From Bdellovibrionales bacterium (GTDB lineage Bacteria; Bdellovibrionota; Bdellovibrionia; Bdellovibrionales; JAGQZY01), in NCBI GenBank assembly GCA_020435205.1, contig JAGQZY010000003.1, positions 1,537-65,536 of the forward strand: DNA of 64,000 nt, written 5' to 3'. A program made the position numbers and the translations under genes. The notes under the pieces were generated by a model that did not search any database, was not told the DNA's origin, and saw only the letters and a list, made by a program, of their open reading frames with translations. This document shows positions 14,232 to 52,262 of this stretch, one piece after another (within the stretch, counting starts at the first letter, position 1; each line of letters begins with the position of its first letter).

Positions 14232-14260
14232 AAACCCAAACCCCATTCTTCCAACCTTTT

Positions 14261-14288
14261 CCAGGGACCTCAAAGTCCCTGGTTTTTT
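14261..14288 (+). terminator. Rho-independent terminator
   Basis: CCAGGGAC-ctcaaa-GTCCCTGG followed by TTTTTT. Confidence 0.85.
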
Positions 14289-14317
14289 GGTTAGAGCGAT
14301 GGATAATTTTGAGACAC

Positions 14318-14345
14318 TAAAGGTTTAGCAGACCCGCTCCGATAA
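14318..14345 (+). promoter_or_regulatory. Sigma-28 promoter candidate for flaG(-fliD-fliS)
   Basis: TAAAGGTT-N12-TCCGATAA matches at 7/8 and 7/8 positions. The -10 element ends only 5-8 nt before the TTG/ATG at 14351/14354. Confidence 0.65.
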
Positions 14346-14353
14346 GAGAGTTG

Positions 14354-14725: not shown

Positions 14726-14903
14726 GCTTTCAAATAGTTATCCTATCTGCAATAAAAACCGTCATGTTTGTGACACCTCTTTTTTAGCTCAATGACATTA
14801 AAACCTTAGCTGGCTGGCCTTTTCCTTTGGTCGGTGACATATTTATGACTCACGAAAATCAGCATTTTTAGGTGATAATAAAAGAATATCTATAGGGGGA
14901 ACT

Positions 14904-16283
14904 TTGCCACCAATTCGTTTTGGAGGATTAGCATCAGGATTACCGCCAAACATAGTCGAACAGATTATGGCCAGCGAACGCATCCCTGTGCAAAACATGG
15001 AGGCAAAGAAAACTAATATCAATACAAAGTTTGATCTTGTTACTGATCTTGAAAGCAAAGTTCGAAAAATGCGAGAAGACATTCAAAAACTATTCGGAAC
15101 GAAAGGGTTTCAAGATTATTCTCTCAAAACATCGCGTGAAGGTATTGTCGCTGGCGCTGTAGATCCCGAGCAGGCAGTGACTGGCAATTGGGCTCTTGAG
15201 GTAGTGCGTATGCCTCAAAGTGCTGGGCGTCTCACCAATGGCTTTCCAGACAAGGACCGCACTCAAGTTGGAGTGGGTTACCTCAAGTTTAGCGGCCCTG
15301 ATGGAGATGAGGAAGTCTATATCAACGACGGCAACAACACTTTGCAAGGCATTGCCAACGCGGTGAACCAAGCCAATTTTGGTATTAGAGCTTCGGTGAT
15401 TAAGGATGCTGATCAAGGTGACTACCCTTATAAAATTATTTTTACGAGTGAAAAATATGGCGATGGAAACAATGTTGAGTTCCCTAGGGTTTATCTTCTT
15501 GATGGAGACCATGATTTTTATTTTGATGAAGAAAGAGAAGCCCATAACGGATTGATCAAGGTGAATGGCTTTGAAGTGGAAGTGGATGACAGAAAGTTAA
15601 AAGACTTGATCCCGGGTGTTACTCTTGATCTCTTGAGTGCTGACCCAGGAAAAGAGGTCGTTGTCTCTGTTAACGAAGACTATGAAATCATCAAAGGGAA
15701 AATTGGAGATTTTGTAGGATCCATTAACGCGGTTTTAGGTTTCATTCAGACTCAAAACAAAATGGACCAAAATACAGATACGTCGAAAACATTAGGTGGT
15801 GATTCCATGTTGCGCAGTGTGGAAATGCGCTTGCGCAGCACACTTCAGGGAGGCAACTACAGCTTTGGTCCGGGAATCAATCGCCTGAGTCAGCTGGGTG
15901 TGGAATTCAACAGAAACGGGACCTTAGATTTCAATCAAGAAAAATTTGATAAAGTTTTGCGTTCGAAGCCCCAGGAAGTGATCAGTTTTTTTCGGGGCAA
16001 TGGCGGTCGAGGTGAAGGATTCATTGGTAAAATTCAGGCCACCGTGGACAATTTCTTGCAGAGCACTTTTGGTGTGATTTCAAATCGCAAACGAGGTCTA
16101 CAAAATCAAATTAAGCGAATTGATGAGCGGATTGAGAGCAAGGAGCGTCTGCTCGCGCGTAAAGAGCAAAACTTAAGACAAAAATTTTCAAAATTAGAGG
16201 AGACAATGGGTGCCCTAAAAGCACAAGGGAGTGCTGTCAGTGCAGCTGTTGGTTCTTTAGGTACGGGGATCAGTTTACCATAG
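14904..16283 (+). CDS. fliD: Flagellar filament cap protein FliD (hook-associated protein 2)
   Basis: The N-terminus PPIRFGGLASGLPPNIVEQIMASERIPVQNMEAKK and the C-terminal coiled coil (RIDERIESKERLLARKEQNLRQKFSKLEETMGALK) are typical of FliD. The start is TTG. Confidence 0.9.
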   Translation: MPPIRFGGLASGLPPNIVEQIMASERIPVQNMEAKKTNINTKFDLVTDLESKVRKMREDIQKLFGTKGFQDYSLKTSREGIVAGAVDPEQAVTGNWALEVVRMPQSAGRLTNGFPDKDRTQVGVGYLKFSGPDGDEEVYINDGNNTLQGIANAVNQANFGIRASVIKDADQGDYPYKIIFTSEKYGDGNNVEFPRVYLLDGDHDFYFDEEREAHNGLIKVNGFEVEVDDRKLKDLIPGVTLDLLSADPGKEVVVSVNEDYEIIKGKIGDFVGSINAVLGFIQTQNKMDQNTDTSKTLGGDSMLRSVEMRLRSTLQGGNYSFGPGINRLSQLGVEFNRNGTLDFNQEKFDKVLRSKPQEVISFFRGNGGRGEGFIGKIQATVDNFLQSTFGVISNRKRGLQNQIKRIDERIESKERLLARKEQNLRQKFSKLEETMGALKAQGSAVSAAVGSLGTGISLP

Positions 16284-29918: not shown

Positions 29919-30263
29919 ATGATTAACCTTATTGGCTTAATGAGGTTCTTATTTCAGAGGGGGCACTGGGTTCTGTGCCCTCTTTTTGTATTGATTTCAG
30001 GCTGTGTAAACCCTGGGGTTTCCCAGGATGAGTACAACCTTGCCCGGGCCGCTTTTAAAGCCGCTCAGGAGGGTGAAGCGAAGCGTTATGCCCCTAAAAT
30101 ATTTTATAAGGCCCAGGGCTTGTATCGGCGTGGGGAAAGGGCCTATTCTGAGCGCTATTATGACGAGGCTAGCGAGCATTTTAAGAAATCCCGCTACTAC
30201 TTTGAAAAAGCTGAGGCTTTGTCGCGACTCAAACTCTTTAAACAAGGAGAGATGGCTCCATGA
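29919..30263 (+). CDS. Small lipoprotein, DUF4398-like helical protein
   Basis: Lipobox LISGC. The segment A-x3-A...KRYAPKIFYKAQGLYRRGERAY...EASEHFKKSRYYFEKAEA matches the DUF4398 pattern often found next to OmpA-family genes. Confidence 0.55.
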   Translation: MINLIGLMRFLFQRGHWVLCPLFVLISGCVNPGVSQDEYNLARAAFKAAQEGEAKRYAPKIFYKAQGLYRRGERAYSERYYDEASEHFKKSRYYFEKAEALSRLKLFKQGEMAP

Positions 30264-30940
30264 AACCCTTATTGTTATTTGCCGTATGTTTATCTTTGGT
30301 GGGTTGTTTAAAAACACGAGCCGAACTGCAAGGCAGTTCTGGAAGCTCCATGCGCACGGATTCGTCGGGTCGTTATGTGACGGGAAACATGGACCAGCAA
30401 CAGCGGGCCCAAATTGACAGCCGATTTTTTGAAATTGACCGAGATTTTCGTCAACTTTACGGAAAAATTGAAAGTCTGGAAAAGCAAGTGGCTGATCTTT
30501 CTGCTAAAAATGCTCAACCTCTGGAGCCAGCGACTGCTGGGGCGACGGCCACACCGGACAAGGTTAAAGATTTAGAAAAACGCATGAGCACCCTTGAAGA
30601 GGCCATTATTGCTTTGGACAAAAAGGTATCTGGCGGTGCGGCCAGCAAAAATGAAAAAACGAGTTTTCAACCTAAGCAACAGCCTAAGGGACTATACTCG
30701 GTTGCCGAGAGCCTTTATGGCCAAGGCAAATACGAAGAGGCGATCCAAGCCTATGAAAAATATCGTAAAAGATATCCTCGCGGTAAAAAGTATGCGGAAG
30801 CCACTTTAAAAATGGGGATGTGTTTTCAGCGCTTGAAAATGCCTATGGATGCAAAAGCTTTTTATAACGAAGTGATTCAACGCTATCCAAAATCGCAGAC
30901 GGCTAAGGCTGCCCAGACTAACATTAAGAGTATCCAGTAG
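30260..30940 (+). CDS. cpoB: Tol-Pal system protein CpoB/YbgF (coiled coil + TPR)
   Basis: N-terminal coiled coil (FRQLYGKIESLEKQVADL) and C-terminal TPR (LYGQGKYEEAIQAYEKYRKRYPRGKKYAEATLKMGMCFQRL...AKAFYNEVIQRYPKSQTAKAA). It is positioned after pal. Confidence 0.8.
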   Translation: MKPLLLFAVCLSLVGCLKTRAELQGSSGSSMRTDSSGRYVTGNMDQQQRAQIDSRFFEIDRDFRQLYGKIESLEKQVADLSAKNAQPLEPATAGATATPDKVKDLEKRMSTLEEAIIALDKKVSGGAASKNEKTSFQPKQQPKGLYSVAESLYGQGKYEEAIQAYEKYRKRYPRGKKYAEATLKMGMCFQRLKMPMDAKAFYNEVIQRYPKSQTAKAAQTNIKSIQ

Positions 30941-36176: not shown

Positions 36177-36830
36177 TTATTGAACAAAAAAGCTATTTCT
36201 TGTTGGCGCGAAGGTATCGCCTGGAGCTAACAAATTGAAGAAACTAATCCCAAAATCAATTTGTATTTTAAACCATATAATTTGCTCATTGAGCTTAATA
36301 TTTTGATTTTGGGTTGTGAGCTCTGTGGTTAGAATTTGCGAGTATCCAAGTACAACCGACGTGACTGGGCTCAGCGGGAGAGCCAAGCCGGCCTGCCACT
36401 GGGTGGGATTATAATCATATTCGAAGAGTTCATTCACTGTGCCAGCCTTGAGATGCTTTCCTCGCATGAACTGGTAATCGATTCCAGCAAACAGATAGGA
36501 GTAGTTAAACCTTACGCCTGTTCCCAAACCATTAAACTGACCCCATTCTGCAAGAGCCGCTGTGCTCGCATTGTTCGTTAAAGAGGTGTAGCGATAGGAT
36601 AGGTCAAAATCAATAGAGAAAAGCCCCGAATTGAGCAGTGGAAATAGAACATCGCCCTGTACAGCAACACCACTATATTTAGCATTTAAAGAACCCGTGG
36701 CAATGGTCAAACTAGGATAACCAACAGAGATTTCCATACCCACACCCTTTTGTGTGGAGGCCCAGCTTGATGAACAAAACAAGAGAAGAATAGAGAGAAA
36801 GAATAATCTATTCACTGGAGATATCCCCAA
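36177..36830 (-). CDS. Small outer-membrane beta-barrel protein (OmpW/porin-like)
   Basis: Signal peptide (FFLSILLLFCSSSWA) and alternating hydrophobic/aromatic beta-strand pattern with Gly-rich turns. The start is TTG 36830 or GTG 36815, and either overlaps the upstream gene end. Confidence 0.6.
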   Translation of the reverse strand: MGISPVNRLFFLSILLLFCSSSWASTQKGVGMEISVGYPSLTIATGSLNAKYSGVAVQGDVLFPLLNSGLFSIDFDLSYRYTSLTNNASTAALAEWGQFNGLGTGVRFNYSYLFAGIDYQFMRGKHLKAGTVNELFEYDYNPTQWQAGLALPLSPVTSVVLGYSQILTTELTTQNQNIKLNEQIIWFKIQIDFGISFFNLLAPGDTFAPTRNSFFVQ

Positions 36831-37791
36831 TGATCACCATGTCAGCGATATTCAGGCTGTAGACATCACGGATAAATGGTTCTGTACCAACTCTTTCTCC
36901 GGTCGTTGTGATTCGTTCAATGCTGTCCGTTGCTGAGGATGCTACTAATAGATCTCCATTGGGAAGCTCGACAATACCAGTAGGATCGTTGATGATTGAA
37001 GTGTCAGTATCCCAAACGATAACCGGATTAGAGCCATCGGGATCAGCTCGATACACGCGGTCGTCGCCTTGGGTAGTTACGTAAAGGTAACCATCAGAAT
37101 GCAAAAGGATTCCATAGGGATTATTGCCAAAACTGACGTGACTAACACAAGTGGCTGTAGAGGTGCTGATGTCGTAGGTCAAAATTTCATCAGCTCCACC
37201 AGCATTGGCAACCACAAGCTGGCCGCTAGCATTAACGAGCATTCCACGAGGTGAGTTCAATGTGCAGGCGCCAGTATTGGTATCGATAAGATCGCTTCCG
37301 AGCCGAATACCGCTGGCATCAAAAACTTCAATGCGATTATTTTCGGTGGCATAGACATTACCATTGGTACCAATGGCAAGATCGTATATTGTGCCGCTAA
37401 ACTGTGCTGAGCCATGGAATAGGGTTTTGCTTCCATCTAAGTTAATTTGGTAAATGGAATCCGTTGTGTCTAAACTCATGTAAACATTTTCTGAGTCTAG
37501 AGCAACGAGTCCTCTGGGGGTCGCTGTTTCGGCGCGAAAGTTACCACCCCTAATGAATTCCCCGTCGGTAGTATAAAAGGCAAATCCACGGTGGTTTCCG
37601 TCAGAACCAGCAATAACTAAATAGGGGATACTTGTGCTCGTCTCTGAAGCCAGGCTCAGGACATCACCTTGTTCTTTTCCACATGAAATAAACAGCAGGG
37701 AAAAAGCTACGAATAGCGATATGTGGACGGGCATCTTCATACGTATCATATCGGTATATTTTCTTGAAAATTTAAGATCAAAATAAGACAT
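36808..37791 (-). CDS. NHL-repeat / six-bladed beta-propeller lipoprotein
   Basis: Lipobox LLFISC after MKMPVHISLFVAF; internal starts at 37749, 37740 or 37734 are possible. Repeated motifs such as PRGLVALDSENVYMS, IYDLAIGTNGNVYAT, PRGMLVNASGQLVVAN, PYGILLHSDGYLYVT and PTGIVELPNGDLLVAS are typical NHL blades. Confidence 0.75.
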   Translation of the reverse strand: MSYFDLKFSRKYTDMIRMKMPVHISLFVAFSLLFISCGKEQGDVLSLASETSTSIPYLVIAGSDGNHRGFAFYTTDGEFIRGGNFRAETATPRGLVALDSENVYMSLDTTDSIYQINLDGSKTLFHGSAQFSGTIYDLAIGTNGNVYATENNRIEVFDASGIRLGSDLIDTNTGACTLNSPRGMLVNASGQLVVANAGGADEILTYDISTSTATCVSHVSFGNNPYGILLHSDGYLYVTTQGDDRVYRADPDGSNPVIVWDTDTSIINDPTGIVELPNGDLLVASSATDSIERITTTGERVGTEPFIRDVYSLNIADMVIIGDISSE

Positions 37792-37926
37792 CTATACCTT
37801 AGCCCATGAGAAGTTGTCGAAGGCGGCGCCCGTCTTGAGTCTAGGGGATTGGTGGGGGGGCAATAAAATGTGTATCAATCTAGGAATTACTAATACTTAG
37901 CCCACTTTTGACCGATATGTTTGTTG

Positions 37927-40917
37927 ATGTTGGCAAAGCTAAAGTACCTATTCATAATTGGAACTCTTTCGCTCTCTTTCTCCGGCTGTAAGCAGGGGAG
38001 TGATGCTTTTGATTTGCTGGGCAGTAGTGACACGACCTCGGTTGAGGATTTAGAAATTACGAGTCGAATTCCCGATCAAGCTTTAATCACGCTCAAGATC
38101 GGCGAATCTCAGCAATTTGCTGTCACCGCTTTGGCTCCGGCTCCACGAACCGTTTCTTATTCTTGGAAGCTAGATGGTTCAGCCTCTGGCGCCGGTCAAG
38201 TTTTTACCTTTACTGCAACAGCTGGGTTGGTGGGCGAGCACAGCTTGAAAGCTATTGTCACCGATGGCGAATCAGTCAAAGAAAACGAGTGGACGATTGT
38301 GGTCAATGCACCACCAGTGATTACGGCAATTTCAACGGGCACTCAAAAAGTCGCGGTGGGATCCACCATTAATATTTCAGCTTCTGCCACAGACCCAAAT
38401 GGTGACACCTTAACCTACAGTTGGGTGGTGGATGGAGCCACCAGTGCCTTTCTCACGGGGACAACAGGGACAGGAAGTTTTACCGGTGACTCTTCTTTAG
38501 TTGGTGCTCGAACCATTACTCTCACTGTGAGTGATGGGATTGAGAGCGTGTCCACTTCGTGGAGTGCTGAAGTGAATTATTTTCCTCAAGCTTGCAACAC
38601 TTTAGCGCAAGGAGAAATTTGTACATATAGTGGTGGACCTCACAAAGGAACAGGTTATCCTGTGACCAATACAACCTTTCCACTCCGTTTTCGACCTTTC
38701 AGTCATGTGCAAGATGCGCTAGGAAATATTTTTATTTCTGACCTCGATAGTAATGTCATTTGGTATTGGAATAAGACAGCAGCTCCAGTGAGTCGAATTG
38801 GGCAAACCATTCCAGCAGGAGTCATCCAAATTGTTGCTGGGACTGGTGAAGCAGCAAGTGGTGGATCTGGCATCCCAGCTCTGCAGTCAGCTCTAAATAG
38901 CCCTCGAGGGCTGTGGTACAATGACGTCACCGGGACTCTTTACGTTGCAGAGTATAGTGGTCACGCCGTGAAATACATCGATAACACGGGGACAGTATTT
39001 GTGGGAATGGGCGGAGGAACTAGCCATGTTGATGGCAACACAGCCTACAATCACGATTGCAATAACCCTGTCCATCTTGCCCATTACAATAACAATTTGT
39101 ATGTCACTTGTTATGCCCATCATCGGGTGAAAAGATGGGATCTGGCGACCGATTTAGGCTATATTGCCGGTGGTGATGGAGGCAATGATATTGCCGGGGA
39201 AAACACCAATCCAACCACTTCAGGAATTGGCAACCCTTATGGACTTTACGTCGATGCCAATGGAATTTATGTGGGTAGTTACTCTCAGCACGTGGTGAGA
39301 TTCATCAACCACAGTGGTGCTCCTTACACATTTTGGAGCGGAAACCCCGATCAAGTGATCGTTGCCAATGGCATGATTGCCTCCATTATTGGTGACGGAG
39401 GAACTTCAGAGCCAGGTTTGGCCATGAATCCCCTGAGCGAATCCTTAGGGCGACCGGTGACGATCACAGTCCGTAATGGCAATGAAATCTTTGTCGGCGG
39501 TCAGCAGCGGGATGATATTGTTCTCGTTAATAATTCAGGAGCTGGTGTGACTATTGATGGAATCACTGTGAATCCTGGCCTTCTCTCTCGCATCAACAAT
39601 TCTGCGGGTGGCTATAATGGAGATATCAATATTAGTAATGCTCGAGTAGACGACCCTTACCAATTGTCGGTGGATATTTTGGACAATAATAAACTGATAT
39701 TGTCCGATTATAATAACTATCGATTACGTGAGCTGGATTTTACCTCTGGAAGATTTTCCAACTTAGCTGGAACAGGCCGAGGAGAGTTGGGATTTTATGG
39801 AGATGTAGAGCTGCCCACCCAAGAGCACCTTTTTAATTATCCCACAGGGATTTTATTTGATGACACCACTCGCACTCTCTTTTTTGCAGACCAAAATAAC
39901 CATCGATTGCGCCAGACGGATGCTTACGGGAGAACCTCAACAGCATTGTGCCGAGGCGCGGGTGATCCTACTATTGATAATGATTTTCCATCCAATGCAC
40001 TTTGCAGAACTAATATTAATAGCAATAACTCAATGAACAACAGTTTTGATATTTGGTCAGATGGCTCTTTAGCCGTCCTCAATAGTTATGGTCACAATGT
40101 TAGAATTTGGAACCGCAGTGGGGCGGATCAAACCTATTTGGGCTCATTCATTCAAAATGACCGAGTCACCACTGTGGCTGGTGATTGGGTCGCTGGCGCT
40201 GGTAATGGCCCTGATGGACCGGCTTTGAACACTCAGTATCAATATCCCAATAGTGTTAAATTTTTCAATAATGCTGGCAATATGGAGCTTTGGATTCTCG
40301 ACACTATGAACCATTGTTTAAGAATGGTCGATAGTGCTGGTAATAGCACGACAATGTTGGGCCTTTGCGGGACTTCTGGAGATCCGGGACCGAGTGCCGC
40401 TGCGGCTGCGGCTCGTTTTAATAGGCCGCGGGGTTTGCTCATTGATGGAAGCGGAAATATTTATATTTCTGATTATAACAACGACACCATCTGGTTCTGG
40501 AATCGTGGAGGAAGCCCCGTCACAATTGGGACTGTCACCATTAACCCTAATGATGTTGCAAAAGTAGCTTGCTTGTCGGGATCGTCGGGGAGTAGTGCGG
40601 AAAACGTATTTGCAACAACCGCTCGATGTAATGAGCCTGCAGGGCTTGCAATGAGTGGTAACAACCTGTGTTTTGCGCAAAGAAACCGCCATAACGTGCG
40701 TTGTATAGACATCACGACAGGACTAATCAGTACTGTTGCGGGAAGGGTCGAGGCGGCTCCTCGTTCAGGGTCTCTTTTTGACTATTCTCAGGAAGGTGTG
40801 GCAGCAACATCAGCCACTCTTTCCTATCCTGCGGCAATCGCCTTTGACGCCAACGGAGATTTATATATTTCTGATACCTACAATCATGTTATTCGAAAAG
40901 TGAAACTCAGTCCTTAG
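37927..40917 (+). CDS. Large lipoprotein with Ig-like (PKD/Big-type) repeats followed by many NHL/beta-propeller repeats
   Basis: Start at the ATG 37927 gives MLAKLKYLFIIGTLSLSFSGC (lipobox). There are two similar roughly 90-aa Ig-like units (YSWKLDGSASGAG...HSLKAIVTDGE and YSWVVDGATSAFL...RTITLTVSDGI). These are followed by numerous NHL-like blades (PRGLWYNDVTGTLYVAEY, PYGLYVDANGIYVGSY, PTGILFDDTTRTLFFADQNNHRLR, PRGLLIDGSGNIYISDYNNDTIW, PAAIAFDANGDLYISDTYNHVIRKV). Confidence 0.8.
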   Translation: MLAKLKYLFIIGTLSLSFSGCKQGSDAFDLLGSSDTTSVEDLEITSRIPDQALITLKIGESQQFAVTALAPAPRTVSYSWKLDGSASGAGQVFTFTATAGLVGEHSLKAIVTDGESVKENEWTIVVNAPPVITAISTGTQKVAVGSTINISASATDPNGDTLTYSWVVDGATSAFLTGTTGTGSFTGDSSLVGARTITLTVSDGIESVSTSWSAEVNYFPQACNTLAQGEICTYSGGPHKGTGYPVTNTTFPLRFRPFSHVQDALGNIFISDLDSNVIWYWNKTAAPVSRIGQTIPAGVIQIVAGTGEAASGGSGIPALQSALNSPRGLWYNDVTGTLYVAEYSGHAVKYIDNTGTVFVGMGGGTSHVDGNTAYNHDCNNPVHLAHYNNNLYVTCYAHHRVKRWDLATDLGYIAGGDGGNDIAGENTNPTTSGIGNPYGLYVDANGIYVGSYSQHVVRFINHSGAPYTFWSGNPDQVIVANGMIASIIGDGGTSEPGLAMNPLSESLGRPVTITVRNGNEIFVGGQQRDDIVLVNNSGAGVTIDGITVNPGLLSRINNSAGGYNGDINISNARVDDPYQLSVDILDNNKLILSDYNNYRLRELDFTSGRFSNLAGTGRGELGFYGDVELPTQEHLFNYPTGILFDDTTRTLFFADQNNHRLRQTDAYGRTSTALCRGAGDPTIDNDFPSNALCRTNINSNNSMNNSFDIWSDGSLAVLNSYGHNVRIWNRSGADQTYLGSFIQNDRVTTVAGDWVAGAGNGPDGPALNTQYQYPNSVKFFNNAGNMELWILDTMNHCLRMVDSAGNSTTMLGLCGTSGDPGPSAAAAAARFNRPRGLLIDGSGNIYISDYNNDTIWFWNRGGSPVTIGTVTINPNDVAKVACLSGSSGSSAENVFATTARCNEPAGLAMSGNNLCFAQRNRHNVRCIDITTGLISTVAGRVEAAPRSGSLFDYSQEGVAATSATLSYPAAIAFDANGDLYISDTYNHVIRKVKLSP

Positions 40918-41468
40918 AATTCGATGCCAAGACCGATAAGCATATTCATTTGCTTGGCCAGTGCATCACCATTGCCGTAAAGATAGTCATATCGAAACTC
41001 TGCATTCAAAAAGACATCTCTACTCAGTGAATAGTCGACTCCAAGGCTCATACCAGGCCCCAAATAGCTTGAGGATAGGGCTAAATTAAAAATTCTTTGG
41101 CGAAAAGACAAGCCAATATAGGGGCGCCATTTTTCTTGGATAATTATAGAGGCTTTTCCAGATTCAATATCTATGGTTCCGGCACTGGTGAAGGGAAAGT
41201 ATTTTCCGCCAAAATCAAAACCATAGCCTGAGCTGCCAGTGTAGATATCACTCATGAGGACATTGATCCCGAAAACACCCTGGAACTTTGGCGACACCGC
41301 ATAGGCGATCTCAACAGAGTAGGCGCCAAAGCCACTGCTTGACTCCGAATTGGACCGAACATTTTCGGTTTGGAAACTCCAACTTCCTCCTTTGATGGCC
41401 ACTTGTCCAACAGAGGCAGAGCTGGAAACTCCGAAAAATAAAACCAAAGTGCTAAGCGCTAGCTTCAT
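40914..41468 (-). CDS. Small outer-membrane beta-barrel protein
   Basis: Start at the ATG 41468 gives the signal peptide MKLALSTLVLFFGVSSSASV. It shows a beta-strand alternation pattern and a C-terminal ...IGLGIEF ending in Phe, the classic OMP beta-signal. It is the last gene of the mot operon. Confidence 0.65.
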   Translation of the reverse strand: MKLALSTLVLFFGVSSSASVGQVAIKGGSWSFQTENVRSNSESSSGFGAYSVEIAYAVSPKFQGVFGINVLMSDIYTGSSGYGFDFGGKYFPFTSAGTIDIESGKASIIIQEKWRPYIGLSFRQRIFNLALSSSYLGPGMSLGVDYSLSRDVFLNAEFRYDYLYGNGDALAKQMNMLIGLGIEF

Positions 41469-43146
41469 TGGCCATTTCTCCACTGGTTGCAGTCCTTTTC
41501 TCAACATAGGCTTTACAAAGACTCATGATCTTTCGTTTGGTGCCGACGAGAGCTTCTATAGGTGTTGGGTGTACATCCTGTTGCTTTCGATACTGTTTAA
41601 GAAGGAATTTCTGCCTTTGCGTCATAAGGTTCTCAATTTTCGTAGTCTCTTCTTGGTCACAGTGAGTAAATACAAGCGCCCATTCATCGATAGAAATATC
41701 AAGGCTCAAATTTTGTAGCACGTTCTCTTCCGATTGAAAGACTTGGTAGAAGGGAAAGCGACTTTGCTTGACCCGATGTGTATCTGGCAAAACGCGATAA
41801 ACTTCCCGTTCATCTTTGGTTACAGCCGTATCAAGGTATTGGATAAGATCGTGTTCAGCGAAGTACTCTTCCACGGTATCTGCACTCTGCAGAGGTTTCA
41901 GTTCAATAGCTTCATCAATAAGTTTTTTAACATTCTTAACCTCAGAACGAGTTGTAGCCTGTTTTGCTCCGAGTAGCTCAGCCCATTGGCCGGGATAAAG
42001 GTACTTGCTGACTTTGATCATAAGGTCTCTGGGAAGAAGTCTAAGAATTGGGGCGGCTTCATCAAATTTTTTATTTTTTAAAAGTTGCCCAAACATTTTA
42101 TGATCAAGACGAGAAAGAACAAGCTCAAGTTCTCTATTTTCTGGATGAGTATGGCTATTTTCCTCTTTTTCAGAGAGTTCTATTCTTAACTTTATATGCA
42201 AAATCGCATCCATAATTTTTGCTGAATTTTGATTCAATTGAGAGGGTTCGGTAATAGCTGTATACCACCACTGCCCCCTTCCATAACGAAAAAGGCTTTT
42301 TACAACAGGGGGAGGAAGCTCCTTAAAAATAGATCCCATTGCATGAGGATACTTATACCCTAGATCTTCAATGGCACGGATCAGTACACCGTTGGGGTTT
42401 TCAAAGACCTGAAGGCAGTCTGAAATCTGACTTTTTATTGAGGCCATTTGTGAGTCCGATAAAACCGGACCGGGTGTTGATATTGAGTCCATAAAGGTTT
42501 GTGGCATCTTGTTAGCAGCTACAGCTGGGTTGGCGGCAAAGGTTTCAGTGGACTTTCCGATATCGGCGAGGGGGCCAGCAATGCCTTTCACCAGGGTTCG
42601 GATTCCATTTTGAAAAGCTATGAAAAACAAGAAAAAACCAAAGAGAAGCAAACCAGCACCAATACCCAAGAAAAGCTTTTTTTGTCGGCTGGTCGTTGTT
42701 GAACCCCAAGATTTTTCGGAAATCTCAACGCGATCATGAATGGGGGACAGCTTTAGGTACTGATAAATCTGATCCCTAAACTGATCTTTTTCAGCCTCCG
42801 CCATATCGCTATCGATATCAATCTTGACGTAGACACTTTTAAGATATCCTAATAGGGTGCCTAGTGACAGATCTTTTCGACTCCAAAAATTGACCTGATC
42901 TTCAGAAACTGAATCCAGATAGGGGAGACTGATTGCGCCGCGATCTGCGCTGTCAGCCAAGCGACGTTCTGGCTGACTGCCATCTGTTTCCACCTTAACG
43001 TAGACTGTAAAAGGCTTTTCTGGGAATCGAGTTTTGATAAAATCTGTTGCCTTTTTAGAGTAGTAGTCCTCGATTTCAACAATTCTTGAGGCATAGCCAT
43101 TGGATGAAAAGAGAATAAGACTGATTAAAATGAGTACATACTTCAT
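41452..43146 (-). CDS. Bitopic/two-pass membrane protein: N-terminal signal or TM, about 135-aa periplasmic domain, TM (about aa 157-178), about 385-aa cytoplasmic domain with FliG-like features
   Basis: MKYVLILISLILFSSNGYA; TM segment KKLFLGIGAGLLLFGFFLFFIAF. An internal repeat reads ELPPPVVKSLFRYGRGQW and LLPRDLMIKVSKYLYPGQW. The C-terminal RFPFYQVF...IENLMTQRQKFLLKQY aligns without gaps to the E. coli FliG MFLFENLV...FLRNMSQRAADILRDD region. The alignment is mine, by eye. Confidence 0.7.
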   Translation of the reverse strand: MKYVLILISLILFSSNGYASRIVEIEDYYSKKATDFIKTRFPEKPFTVYVKVETDGSQPERRLADSADRGAISLPYLDSVSEDQVNFWSRKDLSLGTLLGYLKSVYVKIDIDSDMAEAEKDQFRDQIYQYLKLSPIHDRVEISEKSWGSTTTSRQKKLFLGIGAGLLLFGFFLFFIAFQNGIRTLVKGIAGPLADIGKSTETFAANPAVAANKMPQTFMDSISTPGPVLSDSQMASIKSQISDCLQVFENPNGVLIRAIEDLGYKYPHAMGSIFKELPPPVVKSLFRYGRGQWWYTAITEPSQLNQNSAKIMDAILHIKLRIELSEKEENSHTHPENRELELVLSRLDHKMFGQLLKNKKFDEAAPILRLLPRDLMIKVSKYLYPGQWAELLGAKQATTRSEVKNVKKLIDEAIELKPLQSADTVEEYFAEHDLIQYLDTAVTKDEREVYRVLPDTHRVKQSRFPFYQVFQSEENVLQNLSLDISIDEWALVFTHCDQEETTKIENLMTQRQKFLLKQYRKQQDVHPTPIEALVGTKRKIMSLCKAYVEKRTATSGEMANEASA

Positions 43147-44156
43147 GGCCTTGTCCTTCTATGTTTTAAATTATGTTGGTTCACAACTTTTTCCGCCTGC
43201 TCTTGGGAATAACCCTTTTTTTGTAGCTCAGAGGCCACAGAGCGATCCACAATCTTTTGTAGCAACTCAATATGATTAAGCCGTTCATTGATATTTTGAG
43301 TGATAGCCTTGCTATTAAAAAATGCTTTCATTTTAGCAGAATCAATAACCTCTTTTACCGACTCTACGATTTCGTTGAGATCGCTAAGATGCATCCTATT
43401 TGAGCTTTTCGCAATCGTTGCTGAGGAAACCTCTTCGAAAGGTTTTGCACTTGCATCGATTTCTTCACGACTATCATTTTTAATTTCGCTCGCAGGAACG
43501 GGCTCAATAATAATATCAATTTTTCTTTGCAAGCTAGCCAGATCCCTATCAAAATTTTGATTTTCTTTTGGGGATTCGCCGTAACCAGCGATTCTCAGAT
43601 TTTTCAATTCAATTCCCTGATTATGCAGGAAACGGACAGCCGATATAGAGCGAAAGGCGGAGAGCTCTAAATTATCACTATACTTCCTCTTGGCGCGTAT
43701 AGGCTTTTCATCAGTGTAACCTCTAACCACTAGGCGGAATGCGCCAATATGCTTGGCAATAGCGCGTGAAAAGTCAGAAAGAGCATCTTCGCCTTCTTGG
43801 GTAAGAATATGATTCCCAGAATTGAAGAAGCTCACTCCGGGAAACTCAACCAAAATTCTCTCACCTTTTATATTTGCCTGAATTTTATAGGCACTTTTTG
43901 TATCACTGCTATAAAGAGGGGAGGCGACTTCGCCATGATTACTGAGTTCTGCAGATGGCTTTGTGGGATTCACTTGAGAGACAAAGTATTGGTCCAAGTC
44001 TTTCTTTATGAGATTTAAATTGAAAACTTGTGGCTTAATGTTGAAAAACAAAATAAAGAATCCCAATAGTAAGGTGATCATATCGCCGTAGCTAATGGCC
44101 CAGTTGTTTTCGGCATCTTCAGAACTAAATGGGGCGCGGAGCTTATTTAATTCCAT
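43143..44156 (-). CDS. motB: MotB-family stator protein (OmpA-like peptidoglycan-binding C-domain plus a C-terminal extension of about 100 aa)
   Basis: NNWAISYGDMITLLLGFFILFF is the TM segment with the conserved proton-binding Asp. The OmpA-like region reads FFNSGNHILTQEGEDAL...VVRGYTDEKP...DNLELSAFRSISAVRFL...IAGYGES. Confidence 0.85.
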   Translation of the reverse strand: MELNKLRAPFSSEDAENNWAISYGDMITLLLGFFILFFNIKPQVFNLNLIKKDLDQYFVSQVNPTKPSAELSNHGEVASPLYSSDTKSAYKIQANIKGERILVEFPGVSFFNSGNHILTQEGEDALSDFSRAIAKHIGAFRLVVRGYTDEKPIRAKRKYSDNLELSAFRSISAVRFLHNQGIELKNLRIAGYGESPKENQNFDRDLASLQRKIDIIIEPVPASEIKNDSREEIDASAKPFEEVSSATIAKSSNRMHLSDLNEIVESVKEVIDSAKMKAFFNSKAITQNINERLNHIELLQKIVDRSVASELQKKGYSQEQAEKVVNQHNLKHRRTRP

Positions 44157-44158
44157 GG

Positions 44159-44950
44159 CTAAGCGCTTTCGTTGTAGTGAATTCCGAGTATGTCAATTCT
44201 TTGTTTTGGATCTAGATAAGAGTTGAGCATTTCTTGAACGGTTAGAGCTGATTTCTGATCATGGATCATTAAAAGTCCCTCTAGCAAAAGTTCACGAAAC
44301 ACCTTTTGGTCCTCAGCCTTTTGTAAAAAATGTTCAGAAATAGGCGCTAAAACAAAATTCGAAAACCCAAGGCCATAGAGGGTAGCTGTTAGAGCTAAGG
44401 CCATGTTGAGACCAATTTGTGCGGCGTCGGCACCAGCTCCGACAGATCTCATTAAATTGACTAGACCTAAAACAGTTCCAACCAGACCAAATGCAGGAGG
44501 ATATTTAGCCAGCCTCCGAAAGAGAGTAACAATTTCTTCTTCTCGTTGACGAGCTCTGTAGATTCGTTCTGTTAGAATACTTTTAAACTCTTGTCTTTCT
44601 AGGCCTAATAAAAGCAATTCGATTCCCTCTTTTAGAAAAGGATCAATTTTTTTGTTGTTTAAAAGTGGTCGAACGCTTGCTTTTGAAGCTCCTTCTTGTG
44701 ATGAGGCGCGCACTAATACGTCAATAGATTCAATAGTGTTGGGCCTTCCTGATTTGAGCATAGCAAATGGAGCAAAAAATAATTTTTTCAAATATAAAGG
44801 AGGGAATGAAATCACTGTGGTCGCTAAGGTTCCTCCGAGAACAATGAGCAAGGCCACCTCATCAAAGTAAAAATCTATACTGACGCCCAATATATTTCTG
44901 ACGGTGTACAGAATTCCTAGAATGAGGGTAAATCCGATGAGGTTGTACAC
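44159..44950 (-). CDS. motA: MotA/PomA-family stator protein
   Basis: 263 aa with four TM segments. YPPAFGLVGTVLGLVNLM and ALALTATLYGLGFSNFVLAPI are typical of the MotA/TolQ/ExbB channel family. The size and cytoplasmic loop fit MotA. GTG start overlapping the upstream stop (TAGTG). Confidence 0.85.
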   Translation of the reverse strand: MYNLIGFTLILGILYTVRNILGVSIDFYFDEVALLIVLGGTLATTVISFPPLYLKKLFFAPFAMLKSGRPNTIESIDVLVRASSQEGASKASVRPLLNNKKIDPFLKEGIELLLLGLERQEFKSILTERIYRARQREEEIVTLFRRLAKYPPAFGLVGTVLGLVNLMRSVGAGADAAQIGLNMALALTATLYGLGFSNFVLAPISEHFLQKAEDQKVFRELLLEGLLMIHDQKSALTVQEMLNSYLDPKQRIDILGIHYNESA

Positions 44951-45561
44951 TAGCGATCACTCCTAGGTATTCCGGATTCGATTTTGTTGACCAAATTTTG
45001 AACTTCGATATTGTCAGGGTCGAATTCCAAGGCCTTATAATATGCAGCTAAGGCATCTTGGTGTCTCTGTTGCAGGTAATAGGCATTACCTAAGAGGCTC
45101 CAGCCGACAGCAAAAGATGGGTACTCGCTAACGAGGTTTTGGGCCAAGGATTGGGCTGAGTCATAATTTCTTTTATATAGGTTGGACTGGATACTAGCTA
45201 CCATTCGGCTGACTTTTTCAATTTTGACATTTTCGATCCCACCATTGGCGCTTGCGATCCCTCGGCCCCCTTCGTTCCCATCGAGTTGAGCAAAAATTTG
45301 CGCGTGGGTTGAGAGGGTTCGCTTTTCAAGTATGACTGAGTAAGGCTCAAACCCCGTTTTTTTAATAACAAGATGAACATTTGACCCTTCAATTTGTGAT
45401 ACTGGAATATTAAGTGGGGTCTCGCCAAGCTTCTTAAGGCGCTTGTCGGCTTGGCTGTAGACTTCCGCACCCTGTGGTTGCGAATCCACTTGAACCGTCA
45501 TACTGCTACAGCCGTAGATCAGTATTGGGATGAAAATAATAATTAGGCGAATCCTTGCCAT
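44950..45561 (-). CDS. Lipoprotein with PEGA-like beta-domain and C-terminal TPR repeats
   Basis: Lipobox LIYGC. The PEGA-like region is VQVDSQPQGAEVYSQ...LGETPLNIPV...VHLVIKKTGFEPYSVIL. The TPR region is AVGWSLLGNAYYLQQRHQDALAAYYKALEFDPDN. Confidence 0.7.
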   Translation of the reverse strand: MARIRLIIIFIPILIYGCSSMTVQVDSQPQGAEVYSQADKRLKKLGETPLNIPVSQIEGSNVHLVIKKTGFEPYSVILEKRTLSTHAQIFAQLDGNEGGRGIASANGGIENVKIEKVSRMVASIQSNLYKRNYDSAQSLAQNLVSEYPSFAVGWSLLGNAYYLQQRHQDALAAYYKALEFDPDNIEVQNLVNKIESGIPRSDR

Positions 45562-45591
45562 AACTGGTACTCTCCCTGTTTCTCAATGGAC

Positions 45592-45617
45592 ATATCGGAA
45601 TGATACAGAAAAATTAA
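45592..45617 (-). promoter_or_regulatory. Sigma-28-like promoter candidate for the lipoprotein-motAB operon
   Basis: The minus strand reads TTAATTTT-N10-TCCGATAT versus TAAAGTTT-N11-GCCGATAA (or TAAA-N15-GCCGATAT). It lies about 30 nt upstream of the ATG at 45561, whose SD is GGGAGAG. Confidence 0.4.
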
Positions 45618-47406: not shown

Positions 47407-47901
47407 GTGAGCCGAAGACTCAATCCTCAGTTATTTGAAGACAAGACCCCGACCTCAGCCGAGGTAGAGATCCCCTATTCTGCGGTGGCCAACCGACGGC
47501 TTGAGGAGCAAATGAAGGGCATGAGAAAGTCCATCTCCCACCTAGAAAGCTTGGTGGAGGTGCTGCAGAGCCAGATGGCCCAGTTCATCACTACCAGTGA
47601 CAAGCGTACCGAGGCCTTTTCGAAAGCCATTTCCGAGCTGGAAAGATCCAGCCATAATCAGGACCTTGAGCTAGCTCGCAAGACCCGCCATCTGCAGGAG
47701 CAGCTGGCCGAGCGCCGGTCTGTGGATGCGAAAACCGAAGCTATGGTGGATCGCTTCAACATGAATTTGCAGCAGTTTGAAAACAAGCTAATGACTTTGC
47801 AAAAAGTGCTATCGGAAAAAGAGATGACCTTGATGTCCTATCGCCGAGTCATCGAACAAATCGTCGACGAAGTCGAAAAACTTAAAGCGTCCCGTTACTA
47901 G
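47407..47901 (+). CDS. Coiled-coil protein (164 aa)
   Basis: GTG start. Heptad-rich sequence (SISHLESLVEVLQSQMAQF..., LQQFENKLMTLQKVLSEKEMTL...). The 3' end overlaps the convergent dsbD gene by 20 nt. Confidence 0.6.
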   Translation: MSRRLNPQLFEDKTPTSAEVEIPYSAVANRRLEEQMKGMRKSISHLESLVEVLQSQMAQFITTSDKRTEAFSKAISELERSSHNQDLELARKTRHLQEQLAERRSVDAKTEAMVDRFNMNLQQFENKLMTLQKVLSEKEMTLMSYRRVIEQIVDEVEKLKASRY

Positions 47902-49465
47902 GTTTTTTTGTCGCCTGATTCATACGTTCAATGAATTCGGGGGCCTCTTCAAATCCAGTTAAGATGAGGTCATCTCGGATGAGGCCATCTGAGCCGATAA
48001 AAATCATGGTGGGCAGACCGTAGACCTTATACTTCACTTGCCAATCTTTGAGTTCCGGAAAAGGGCTGGTCGCATCCACTTTCAACATCACAAACTGTCG
48101 GCTTTTGTTGATCACACTTTGATCGCTAAAAGTGAACTGATCCATTTCCACGCAGGAGACGCACCAGTCGGCATAAAAATCAATGATCACGGGCCTTCCC
48201 GCGGCTTTGGCTTCAATCACTTTTTGTGGATCGAATTTGATCCATTTGACCCCCGCACTTTCCTCGGCTGGAGCCGAGACGAGATAGGGCTTTGCGAGCG
48301 GCCAAACGTAGTAGGCGGAAAGAGCAAACAAGCAGATCGCAAGAATCACCTTTACGCGATTCATCCACATTCCAGAGCGTGGGATTTTATTGGCGAGGTG
48401 GCTAAAAGTTCCCAGAATTAAAAACAAAAGGCCGAAACCCATTGCAAAAGTAAAGAGGAGGAGGAAGCCAAGCACACTATCTTGGGATTGGGCAATATAT
48501 GCCAAGACTCCCACCAGAACGGGACCCACGCAGGGGCTAGCAATCACGCCCGCAAGGAGGCCAGAGACAAAGGCTCCTAGCGGACTCTTTTTTACATTCA
48601 CGGCGCCGAAGCGATTGCGAATGGAGGCGGGTGCTTGAATTTCAAAAAGACCAAGTAGACTCAGCCCCATGATAAAAAAGACAAGGCTCATACTGATGAT
48701 GACAGCGGGATGACGAATGAGCGAGCCAAACAACTGCCCAGTTTGTGCGGCGATGACCCCGAGTAAGGCGTAGGTGAGACCAATTCCCACGACGTAGCTA
48801 AGGCTCATCACAAAGGACTGCAAGTGGGTCCTTTCTTTTTCCGTGCCCAAAACCGCTAAAGTGATGGGAATAAGCGGATAAACACAAGGTGTAAGAGAGG
48901 TCAAAAAGCCAAAAAAGAAAATTAATAAAAAAGCGTAGGATAAGTTGCCCTCAATTTGTTTTTGTATAAAAGAGGAAGAAGTTTTGTCCTCTTCTTTTTT
49001 GGCAGCGCCACCAATGTCAGTATTGATTTCTAGTTTTAAAATTCTGGGTGTCAGACAAATTTTATCTGTACAGGCAATGTAAGTTAGATCAGCAAAAACT
49101 TCTGTTGCCGGTCCTTCAAACAATTCGTTGAGTTGAAGCTGGGCCTTCAAAGTGGCTTTTCCTCGCACCCCGGTTTTCTTCTTCTTGCTAATCTTGTCTT
49201 CAAACTCCACTAAAGGCTCAACAAAAACTTCACCCACTTCGATTCCGGTAGGCTGTGTAATCACCAACTTAAATTTGTCACCATAGGCGGAGAACCCATC
49301 TTGCAAGTTCATTTCCACCTGCATTTCCATCCAAGGGTGATCGCTTTCAGGGTTCTGAATTTTAATGAAGCCGTGCCCAGAAAGAGGGTTCAAGTTAGCT
49401 AACTCAGCATTGGTGAAGCCGCTACAGAGGAGGAAAATAAGGGGCAAAAGATATAAGCGCAACAT
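47882..49465 (-). CDS. dsbD: Thiol:disulfide interchange protein DsbD (N-domain, CcdA-type membrane core, C-terminal thioredoxin)
   Basis: LTSLTPCVYPLIPITL and VIASPCVGPVLVG are the two membrane Cys motifs; the thioredoxin motif is FYADWCVSCVEMD. Start at the ATG 49465 gives the signal peptide MLRLYLLPLIFLLCSGFTNA; the ORF-track start at 49540 adds 25 aa. Confidence 0.9.
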   Translation of the reverse strand: MLRLYLLPLIFLLCSGFTNAELANLNPLSGHGFIKIQNPESDHPWMEMQVEMNLQDGFSAYGDKFKLVITQPTGIEVGEVFVEPLVEFEDKISKKKKTGVRGKATLKAQLQLNELFEGPATEVFADLTYIACTDKICLTPRILKLEINTDIGGAAKKEEDKTSSSFIQKQIEGNLSYAFLLIFFFGFLTSLTPCVYPLIPITLAVLGTEKERTHLQSFVMSLSYVVGIGLTYALLGVIAAQTGQLFGSLIRHPAVIISMSLVFFIMGLSLLGLFEIQAPASIRNRFGAVNVKKSPLGAFVSGLLAGVIASPCVGPVLVGVLAYIAQSQDSVLGFLLLFTFAMGFGLLFLILGTFSHLANKIPRSGMWMNRVKVILAICLFALSAYYVWPLAKPYLVSAPAEESAGVKWIKFDPQKVIEAKAAGRPVIIDFYADWCVSCVEMDQFTFSDQSVINKSRQFVMLKVDATSPFPELKDWQVKYKVYGLPTMIFIGSDGLIRDDLILTGFEEAPEFIERMNQATKKPSNGTL

Positions 49466-49545
49466 GGATCTATCATATACAATCCAGCCCCTGGTTTCAA
49501 TGAAATGCTTGGAATTATGGGTGGGATGAGATAGGACCATAGCTT

Positions 49546-51356: not shown

Positions 51357-52262
51357 TTAATGGTCGAAGTTCAAACCGACAACTGTCTGATTGCGGCCTC
51401 GTCTTTTAGCTTGATAGAGGGATTGGTCAGCACTAATGATGAGTTCATCCACAGAGTCAGCGTGTTGCGGATAAGAAGCAATTCCCAGACTTATGCTCAG
51501 GGGATAGTTATTAAAAGAGCAGTTGAGAACATGATTTCTCATTCTTTCGGCCACCATCAAAGCCTCTTCAGAGGTCGTGTTTGGGAGAATCACTGCAAAC
51601 TCTTCGCCCCCGTATCTGGATATAGAATCGCCTTCGGGGCAATTGTTTTTGAGTTCTTCAGCCACTTGGGCAAGGAGTTTATCTCCCTCAGGATGGCCAA
51701 AACGATCATTGAATTTTTTGAAATGATCAATATCGATCATGATTAATGAAAGGGCCCTTTTTTTGTCTTTATGCCTATCAAACTCAATACGAATTCTTTC
51801 TTGAAAAAAACGATGATTAGTCAATTGAGTGACGGGGTCCGTAATTGCTAGCTTCTGCAAGCGTTGGGACTCCATTAAGCTTTTGTGAAACTTATAAGCC
51901 TCAACCACTTGAATCAAAAGTTGATCGTTTTCCCAGGGCTTCATAATGAACTTATGAACTTTCGCTGTATTAATAGCATCTTCCATACTCTTTAAATCAA
52001 TTTGTCCACTGAGAAGGACTCGGCCACAGCTAGGCACCGCCTTTTCTACTTTGGACAAAAATTCAACACCATTTTCCGTGCCTAGGATATGGTCGCTAAT
52101 AACAACAGAGATATCGGGGTTTTGTTCAAGGATTGCAAAGGCATCAATTGTGTCCGTGGCTAAGAGAACTTCAAAGCGGCGGCGCAAGGTTCGCTCAAGA
52201 GATTCTAGAATTCCTAGCTCGTCGTCAACACATAGAATTTTAGGTAAATTATTTTCCATCAT
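51357..52262 (-). CDS. Response regulator with GGDEF diguanylate cyclase output (REC-GGDEF)
   Basis: REC domain ILCVDDELGILESL...VVISDHILG...FIMKPW. GGDEF domain DPVTQLTNHRFF...IMIDIDHFKKFNDRFGHPEGD...RYGGEEFAVIL. There is no RxxD I-site 5 residues upstream of GGEEF. Confidence 0.9.
   Translation of the reverse strand: MMENNLPKILCVDDELGILESLERTLRRRFEVLLATDTIDAFAILEQNPDISVVISDHILGTENGVEFLSKVEKAVPSCGRVLLSGQIDLKSMEDAINTAKVHKFIMKPWENDQLLIQVVEAYKFHKSLMESQRLQKLAITDPVTQLTNHRFFQERIRIEFDRHKDKKRALSLIMIDIDHFKKFNDRFGHPEGDKLLAQVAEELKNNCPEGDSISRYGGEEFAVILPNTTSEEALMVAERMRNHVLNCSFNNYPLSISLGIASYPQHADSVDELIISADQSLYQAKRRGRNQTVVGLNFDH

Follow-up and report, generated by a model that had tools for sequence, protein, structure and literature searches.

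The flagellar motor, with its MotA5B2 stator, its C-ring containing FliG, and its MS-ring of FliF, is the closest described relative of the system reported here. To our knowledge, every MotA-FliG torque interface described so far operates inside a flagellum, and the other 5:2 motors that we know of (Tol, Ton, Agl, GldLM, and Zorya) act through unrelated coupling partners. A 64,000-nucleotide stretch of DNA from a Bdellovibrionales bacterium (GenBank assembly GCA_020435205.1, contig JAGQZY010000003.1, positions 1,537 to 65,536; called the window below) carries six genes, A to F, in which motA and motB (genes B and C) are encoded together with a membrane-anchored FliG-like protein (D) and three exported partners (A, E, and F). 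These genes constitute a conserved, envelope-spanning module of uncultured Bdellovibrionota, and their combination suggests that the flagellar torque mechanism has been reused in a second machine. In the open-access literature that was searched, no account was found of motAB being encoded together with a FliG-like protein anchored in the membrane, and the passages searched in a 2025 survey of MotAB diversity do not mention such a pairing.

The module shares with the flagellar core the full-length homology of MotA and MotB, including the plug, the channel Asp, the conserved prolines, and the OmpA-like domain. Protein D resembles FliG in its FliG_C domain and in its helical fold. Its periplasmic domain and transmembrane helix may be laid out like the RBM3-TM2 end of FliF; a candidate FliA-type promoter is a further similarity. 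In contrast to the flagellar core, the FliG-like protein of the module is anchored in the membrane with a secreted N-terminus and has neither an EHPQR nor an MFXF motif, and most of the canonical charge pairs appear not to be retained. The module is also devoid of FliM/FliN, export apparatus, rod, hook, and filament genes, and its partners are instead a pair of lipoproteins and a candidate small barrel of the outer membrane.

Other known systems resemble parts of the module. In both the MotX/MotY/FlgT set of Vibrio and the PflA/PflB/FlgY set of Helicobacter and Campylobacter, periplasmic or outer-membrane TPR-type and peptidoglycan-binding proteins stand beside MotAB or PomAB. Unlike the module, neither set is known to include a homologue of FliG, a barrel in the outer membrane, or a lipoprotein with NHL repeats, and the genes are not located in one operon with motAB and a rotor-like gene. 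The proteins are also unrelated in sequence, gene A having TPR_1, TPR_2, and PEGA matches and not Sel1 repeats. Tol-Pal and Zorya (ZorAB) are MotAB-family motors that work outside flagella. The Tol-Pal system consists of TolQRAB-Pal-CpoB and, like the module, includes proteins of the beta-propeller, OmpA-like binder, and TPR types, but the MotA of the module is not TolQ-like; with Zorya, the module shares only the ZorB-type homology of MotB. The Agl-Glt machinery of Myxococcus and Bdellovibrio and the GldLM/type 9 secretion system (T9SS) machinery, the former of which occurs in the same phylum as the module, connect a proton-driven 5:2-type motor across the envelope with TPR proteins, barrels of the outer membrane, and an adhesin at the surface. 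Neither is known to use a FliG-like partner, GldLM is not homologous to MotAB, and AglRQS is placed in a TolQR-like, non-flagellar group in a comparative study (PMC12505986).

Genes A to E are all on the minus strand. As assigned from the list of open reading frames and Pfam, gene A (44950-45561) encodes a 203-amino-acid lipoprotein with PEGA and TPR sequences, gene B (44159-44950) a PomA-like MotA of 263 residues starting with GTG, gene C (43143-44156) a MotB of 337 residues, and gene E (40914-41468) a candidate small outer-membrane beta-barrel of 184 residues. The longest possible reading frame of gene E is 197 codons (from 41507); the gene calls of homologues favour the 184-residue start. 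Gene D (41452-43146) specifies a single-pass inner-membrane FliG-like protein of 564 residues, for which AlphaFold2 (AF2) and Foldseek were used in addition. A preliminary description of this DNA, made from its sequence without database searches, had proposed that these five genes abut or overlap, and all four junctions were read from the sequence as it had claimed: a 1-nucleotide overlap (TAGTG) of A and B at 44950, a 2-nucleotide gap between B and C (44157-44158), a 4-nucleotide overlap (ATGA) of C and D (43143-43146), and a 17-nucleotide overlap of D and E (41452-41468). The proposed size of the unit did not hold. Gene F (37921-40917, plus strand), which encodes a 998-amino-acid NHL lipoprotein with Big/PKD domain(s) according to Pfam and is convergent with E, has to be included as a sixth gene, as it is linked to the others in 14 of 15 distinct loci. 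The stop codons of E and F overlap (TTAG, 40914-40917), the same 4-nucleotide overlap is present in locus L001, and there is no terminator between the two genes at this junction.

The module was compared in 15 independent loci, in some of which D is only 20-25% identical to its counterpart in the window. The window protein, which is identical to KDD33_01355, has 15 close homologues. An exhaustive profile search of a representative library extended the family to 209 representative clusters, 155 of which had E <1e-30; nearly all are 550-600 residues long and match over their full length. A search using a remote medoid also contributed to the wider family. A homologue search with the profile of 141 D sequences returned only the same 15 close proteins. 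The family splits into two deep clades, and all of its named sources are metagenome-assembled genomes of uncultured Bdellovibrionota, assigned to Bdellovibrionales, Bdellovibrionia, Pseudobdellovibrionaceae, Bdellovibrionaceae, or Oligoflexia/Oligoflexales. The order A, MotA, MotB, D, E is kept wherever the contig reaches, with junctions that usually overlap or abut. D is located directly downstream of motA-motB in 14 distinct loci and in the window, that is, wherever there is sequence on that side, and the ATGA-type overlap of 4 nucleotides between motB and D was found again in most loci. The genes flanking the module differ from locus to locus and are never shared. The arrangement is far beyond chance, and the co-conservation of the neighbours with this motAB pair, on which the preliminary description had made its proposal depend, was seen in the same order in every locus examined. 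An insertion element, a transposase pair of HTH_Tnp_1 and rve, splits motB from D in locus L017 (8802-9958, on a 3.02-Mb JGI contig). An identical D protein (P0150) followed by the same series of downstream genes was observed in a second sample (L018), in which 116 bases are present upstream of D.

The assignment of genes B and C to a stator, already made from the sequence motifs, was confirmed by profile searches. MotA matches Pfam MotA_ExbB with E 2.7e-21, and its residues 5-251 (of 263) align in phmmer with solved flagellar MotA/PomA structures, including 8ucs_C, 6ysf, and 8bri, at E 1e-27 to 1e-22. The equivalents of E. coli MotA P173 and P222 are invariant in the 13 orthologues aligned with the E. 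coli protein. MotB scores above the Pfam cutoffs for both MotB_plug (PF13677; 33.5 bits, cutoff 24) and OmpA (PF00691; 39.6 bits, cutoff 27.2). Its transmembrane helix bears the channel Asp in the sequence YGDMITLL; WAISYGDM/L is invariant in eight orthologues and aligns with AYAD (D32) of E. coli MotB. Such hallmarks distinguish the flagellar stators (the "FIT" group) from their Tol, Exb, and Agl relatives, as set out in the comparative study (PMC12505986). Judged by these features, MotA and MotB are predicted to form a flagellar-type stator with a FliG-contacting cytoplasmic domain. MotA stays below all NCBIfam equivalog cutoffs (MotA, PomA, and MotP; best score 118 bits vs 237), and the pair is divergent, though flagellar-type. 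MotB is 313-337 residues long in the window clade vs 221-278 in the remote clades. Only in the window clade does it have a charged, helical C-terminal extension of ~110 residues beyond the OmpA-like domain (residues ~225-337; 43143-43480, minus strand), in which no domain match was found. The identification of MotA as TolQ or ExbB was rejected on the basis of the NCBIfam scores (TolQ 18.4 bits, cutoff 221; ExbB 17.8 bits, cutoff 135). Zorya was rejected as well; only MotB matched ZorB models (E 1e-15, PADLOC), ZorA, ZorC, and ZorD were not found, and proteins A, B, D, E, and F gave no match at all in PADLOC.

The FliG-like character that had been ascribed to the 564-residue product was borne out by profiles and by structure. 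On its own, the protein of the window matches FliG_C (PF01706) at E 1.4e-3 with 19.4 bits, under the cutoff of 23.3, and MgtE_N weakly. Across the family, Pfam finds FliG_C in 35 of 76 members, with a best E of 1.5e-10, and MgtE_N in 12 of 76. The profile built from 141 family sequences matches FliG_C of T. maritima at E 5.2e-5 when compared with PDB sequences. The AF2 model has a mean pLDDT of 76, rising to ~90 in the cytoplasmic part, which is an all-helical FliG-like region of residues 231-555 (41482-42456, minus strand) as delimited by AF2, Foldseek, and profiles. Full-length FliG of Aquifex (3hjl; E 3e-3, probability 0.99, 345 columns) is the top Foldseek match, and FliG of the Salmonella C-ring (8umx_B, 9n49_G) is among the best. 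The alignments to full-length FliG (3hjl, 8umx_B, 9n49_G, 8vib_G) cover 316-369 columns, with probabilities of 0.90-0.99, E 3e-3 to 3e-2, and a low global TM-score. The FliG_C-like domain alone (about residues 458-548; 41503-41775, minus strand; Pfam and Foldseek) reaches a TM-score of 0.79 to 1qc7_B and of 0.74 to 8ucs_H, a FliG_C chain solved together with MotAB.

Individual residues were mapped by hhalign of the family profile against the single E. coli FliG and FliF sequences, which gave colinear but uncalibrated alignments (Prob <2%, E 0.03-0.04). In the helix aligned to the FliG torque helix (E 0.03), 140 of 141 D sequences have K or R at the equivalent of R281, inside a conserved charged stretch in which the preceding position is E or D in 116 sequences; 81 have E at the counterpart of D288. 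The position of the MFXF hinge of FliG is occupied in D by a near-invariant R-P-P-F-[YF] motif (R463 and F466 each in 138/141). The FliM-binding signature EHPQR is absent from the family, EHP occurring in only four of the 141 sequences. The absence of both EHPQR and MFXF fits a partner that needs no C-ring. The extreme C-terminus (41452-41460) is Ala in 130 members and Ala-Ala in 96, an ending that is reminiscent of an ssrA-like degradation signal. FliG is a soluble cytoplasmic protein that binds the C-terminus of FliF through FliG_N; D differs from it in having a signal peptide, a periplasmic domain of 130 residues, and a transmembrane helix. D is therefore a membrane-tethered homologue of FliG that lacks the features related to switching.

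According to the AF2 model, the signal peptide of D is followed by an alpha/beta domain (residues 21-144), a long helix, a disordered linker (187-225), and the helical region of residues 231-555. The transmembrane helix (residues 156-182; 42601-42681, minus strand) was placed by hydropathy, being the sole internal 19-residue window with a Kyte-Doolittle value >1.6. Across the family, the flank that follows the helix has a net charge of +1.56 and the flank that precedes it one of +0.29, a bias that puts the FliG-like part in the cytoplasm. The periplasmic domain (residues 20-150; 42697-43089, minus strand; AF2 and Foldseek), when predicted alone on a 42-sequence alignment (pLDDT 81), has the topology alpha-beta-[insert]-beta-alpha-beta. 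This is the strand order of the ring-building motif with an insertion between its first two strands. The insert comprises ~40 residues of low confidence with conserved LPY...W88..D motifs, and it is located at the position of the beta-collar in FliF RBM3. Many FliF S-ring/RBM3 entries are matched by this domain in Foldseek, with probabilities of 0.97-0.99, E 0.04-0.1, and rmsd values (root mean square deviations) of ~1.8 Å over just 46-53 columns, as is SpoIIIAF (E 0.037). In hhalign, residues 114-184 of D are colinear with residues 395-474 of E. coli FliF, corresponding to the second half of RBM3 and TM2, at an uncalibrated E of 0.037. It is plausible from these models that the domain is RBM3-like and of the FliF/SpoIIIA ring-building type.

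Artificial proteins of a comparable design are known. Engineered FliF-FliG fusions of Salmonella and Vibrio, in which a ring-forming periplasmic and membrane part is covalently joined to FliG, are reported to assemble rings (PMC6079021, PMC11481574), and a covalent link of the type seen in D would on that evidence be compatible with ring assembly. Those laboratory constructs contain a complete FliF (RBM1-3 and two transmembrane helices) and act within the flagellum, in contrast to D, which is natural, has a single transmembrane helix and no more than one periplasmic domain, a small one, and is encoded outside flagellar gene clusters. If the RBM3-like assignment holds, D could plausibly be regarded as a natural miniature of these fusions.

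On the basis of these results, the following working model is proposed. MotA and MotB would form a flagellar-type, proton-driven stator that is anchored to the peptidoglycan via the OmpA-like domain of MotB. Its cytoplasmic face would act on the FliG_C-like domain of D and not on the flagellar C-ring. D, with its one-helix tether in the inner membrane and its small periplasmic domain, would be a minimal, natural FliF(RBM3)-FliG fusion, and the force or rotation exerted on it would pass via the periplasmic domain to A, E, and F. The likely output would be F, for instance as an adhesin or as another surface component that is moved or gated. As motAB is strictly inherited along with a gene for a FliG homologue and is translationally coupled to it, it is most economical to assume that the stator works on D; the periplasmic domain of D and the fact that A, E, and F all carry export signals suggest that the output is passed outward. 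We consider the chance about even that the dedicated stator acts on D and that the force is relayed to the outer-membrane partners. It is possible, and on balance doubtful, that the module is a complete rotary machine in itself, without rod or export apparatus, in which D forms a small MS-ring-like ring that is turned by its dedicated MotAB. In such a machine, the ring would be built through the RBM3-like domain, and its rotation would drive A, E, and F, moving or tensioning a surface adhesin for gliding or prey contact.

The same features of D could be read in another way: D may be a membrane-tethered FliG_C decoy that binds MotA and so parks, brakes, or sequesters stators, in the manner of a clutch or a storage site. 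Such a decoy might answer a signal from the envelope or the cell surface that F, E, and A perceive and that the periplasmic domain of D passes on, for example to halt swimming upon prey contact. The FliG_C domain without the FliM-binding and hinge motifs and the long flexible linker to the membrane are in keeping with this idea, the periplasmic domain and the outer-membrane partners could provide a sensing path, and a C-terminal Ala-Ala resembling a proteolysis tag (96/141) would suit a regulated inhibitor. A brake needs no stator genes of its own, yet in every locus motA and motB are strictly inherited together with D and show translational coupling to it. Moreover, the known brakes and clutches YcgR, MotI, and EpsE are small, soluble, and unrelated to FliG, and D has no sensor or signalling domain. 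We regard a decoy function as very unlikely.

The proposed transfer of force from D to the cell exterior draws on the three remaining proteins, all of which have export signals (a lipobox or a signal peptide) and vary together with the core genes throughout the family. For A, the earlier call of a PEGA/TPR lipoprotein was supported: Pfam detects TPR_1 (E 7e-10), TPR_16 (E 4e-9), and PEGA (21.0 bits, cutoff 20.8), with PEGA at the N-terminus and two TPR repeats at the C-terminus. The lipobox Cys18 is invariant in nine orthologues, and A is orthologous across the deep clades with 22-62% identity; its PDB relatives are generic TPR proteins only. An accessory set of the Vibrio MotX/MotY type was considered and rejected, as Pfam gave no Sel1 model for A and no separate MotY-like gene. 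The call of a small outer-membrane barrel for E was likewise upheld. Residues 7-184 match OMP_b-brl at E 8e-5 (23.3 bits, under the cutoff of 28.7), and matches to the same model are precomputed for its orthologues. E ends in Phe, the signal peptide is present in all orthologues and the terminal Phe in six of nine, and the protein is orthologous across both D clades. No significant PDB relative of E was found, the match to Opa60 having E 1. In two remote-clade loci, extra small genes of 175-184 codons, one with an OMP_b-brl match, are located just upstream of A (L009, 4103-5777; L010, 5165-5719). They are absent from the window and could be either further components or paralogues of E.

Protein F matches NHL (E 2e-18), TEN_NHL (E 6e-12), and Big_9 (E 1e-6) in Pfam. 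Its homologues, with 26-67% identity and sizes from 998 to >3900 residues, all have a lipobox and a common C-terminal motif. The gene lies directly downstream of motAB-D-E on the same strand in L008, L009, L011, L012, L017, and L019, and is convergent in the window and in L001, L002, L006, and L007. It is 2.4 kb away in L003 and upstream of the operon in L004 and L010, as two tandem NHL copies in the former (16-5624) and as a 3930-amino-acid NHL/cadherin giant on the same strand in the latter (1-5174). A linkage that outlasts such rearrangement argues for function, and the ancestral unit was most likely a six-gene operon. In the window, a CCGATA sequence with a weak -35 region (37880-37930, plus strand) is located 5-10 nucleotides upstream of two possible start codons of F (TTG at 37921, ATG at 37924); either the F mRNA is a nearly leaderless transcript of the FliA type or the start of F is mis-set.

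This set of partners is also what a non-rotary system resembling Tol-Pal or TonB would use. In such a system, the stator would energise conformational work at the outer membrane, to maintain the envelope or to handle lipoproteins or adhesins, and D would not form a rotating ring but only dock and activate the stator. The composition recalls Tol-Pal, in which a motor of the 5:2 type likewise occurs with an adaptor in the inner membrane, a beta-propeller, a peptidoglycan binder of the OmpA type, and a protein with TPR repeats, and the ring of D is a proposal only. The MotAB-like SiiAB proteins are reported to assist the export of a giant adhesin by a type 1 secretion system (10.1101/641415). MotA of the module is nevertheless not TolQ/ExbB-like (TolQ 18.4 bits vs 221), and its full-length alignment is with flagellar MotA/PomA. 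The coupling of TolA and TonB to their motors takes place inside the membrane, and both span the periplasm, but the large domain of D is cytoplasmic and FliG-like, which is sensible only for contact with the cytoplasmic domain of MotA. Separate Tol-like genes also appear to be present in the window: a 226-residue coiled-coil protein with TPR_6 similar to CpoB/YbgF (30260-30940, plus strand) is encoded near a 964-residue beta-propeller protein with PD40/DPPIV_N matches (26430-29324, minus strand), and both may be separate Tol-Pal-related genes. A Tol- or Ton-like mode of action is thus judged distinctly unlikely.

The operon is preceded by a candidate promoter of the FliA/sigma-28 type, TTAAT-N14-CCGATAT (45592-45617, minus strand), that starts 56 nucleotides upstream of the start codon of gene A. 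This candidate had been pointed out before, and its positional conservation speaks for it. A strict match to T[CAT]AA-N14-16-nCCGA[TA][AT] is present 47-58 nucleotides upstream of gene A in six of 13 loci (the window, L001, L003, L006, L007, and L013), vs 0.045 matches expected in the 1.04 kb examined at a background of 0.043 per kb per strand; two or three further loci have near matches. The site is similar to the consensus of the FliA-dependent attack-phase promoters of B. bacteriovorus, TTAAG-N16-CCGATA, a motif that precedes two thirds of the attack-phase promoters of that species, including those of many non-flagellar genes (PMC3627812). The module is, on this sequence evidence, probably transcribed from a FliA-type, attack-phase-like promoter. 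As the motif covers the whole attack-phase regulon of B. bacteriovorus, the site suggests attack-phase-type expression and not a flagellar function.

The host itself is flagellated, as follows from the presence in the window of two flagellin genes (12159-12986 and 13398-14231, plus strand; Flagellin_N and Flagellin_C, E 1e-34 to 1e-38) and of fliD (14904-16283, plus strand; FliD_C, E 4.5e-43), 25 kb from the module. No basal-body gene was present among the open reading frames scanned in the window. The earlier statement that none is nearby is correct for these reading frames, but it had passed over the flagellar filament genes at 12159-16283. A strong sigma-28-like site, TAAAGGTTTAGCAGACCCGCTCCGATAA, was noticed at 14318 (plus strand) between the second flagellin gene and fliD.

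Filament genes in the same window, a FliA-like promoter before the operon, and a flagellar-type MotAB are also what would be expected if the module encoded an alternative or additional stator of the flagellum, with D, A, E, and F as scaffolds that recruit, position, or stabilise it at the ordinary rotor, as MotX/MotY/FlgT do in Vibrio or the PflA/PflB/FlgY rings in Helicobacter and Campylobacter. Bdellovibrio species have several motAB pairs for one flagellum (PMC11323537, PMC11870529), and periplasmic accessory proteins with TPR or OmpA domains are known from other motors (PMC12054838). Against this stand the absence of a FliG homologue from the known accessory sets and the competition that a tethered second FliG_C would pose to the FliG of the C-ring for the same surface of MotA, of which the rotor-facing residues seem diverged. 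In every locus examined, the operon is separate from the genes of the flagellar basal body, and a lipoprotein of 1000-3900 residues with NHL, PKD, or cadherin domains would be an odd scaffold for a motor. The FliA motif carries little weight here, since it also governs most non-flagellar attack-phase genes in B. bacteriovorus (PMC3627812). A role as a flagellar stator set is considered unlikely, and there is a realistic chance that the module is a distinct machine.

Several observations weigh against the proposal that the stator acts on D and, through it, on A, E, and F. The link between MotA and D is one that we infer from gene content and homology. The position equivalent to D288 of FliG is Gln in the window protein, and FliG K264, D289, and R297 are not conserved in the D family. 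On the side of MotA, the canonical charges of the rotor-stator pairs are not clearly retained, and the alignments conflict: for the window clade, MAFFT with E. coli MotA places R and D at the positions of R90 and E98, whereas HMMER alignments to PomA (in which these residues correspond to R88 and E96) and to MotA of C. sporogenes place S/Q and V/R there. The G-anchored motif makes the HMMER placement the more credible one, and the charges are then not conserved. About 40 disordered residues separate the transmembrane helix of D from its FliG-like part, which is a loose tether for the transfer of torque. The periplasmic domain is matched as well by OsmC-like folds (E 0.01, Foldseek), it gave no Foldseek match at E 1e-3, also when re-predicted alone with a deeper alignment, and Pfam YscJ_FliF or YscJ_FliF_C was found in none of 76 family members (E up to 0.1). 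Finally, with a flagellated host and a FliA-like promoter before the operon, a flagellar role is compatible with the data.

If the pairing of the stator with D is real, either the MotA-FliG interface has been redeployed or a simpler state has been preserved. Were the rotary version correct, the module would offer the first MotA-FliG torque interface outside the flagellum and a living minimal stator-rotor pair that bears on the origin of the flagellar motor. Even as a mere flagellar accessory set, it would be the first with a FliG paralogue. With six genes, it is a small and tractable system in which to study how the rotation of a stator becomes work. It is also a candidate for the unexplained surface behaviours of the predatory Bdellovibrionota, as neither the gliding motor nor the adhesins of Bdellovibrio have been identified according to a 2026 review (PMC13104615).

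Some neighbouring genes of the window are mentioned for completeness. A gene for a 327-residue beta-propeller protein resembling NHL and Vgb_lyase proteins (36808-37791, minus strand) is divergent from F; elsewhere it is not conserved beside the module. A FliA motif of the Bdellovibrio type that is nearly perfect, TTAAA-N16-CCGATA (~37749-37775, minus strand), stands before this gene; as the motif falls inside the longest open reading frame, the true start codon is probably located further downstream. Genes for a DsbD-type thiol:disulfide interchange protein (47882-49540, minus strand) and a response-regulator-GGDEF diguanylate cyclase (51357-52262, minus strand) lie 3-7 kb from the operon, and in other loci they do not accompany the module.

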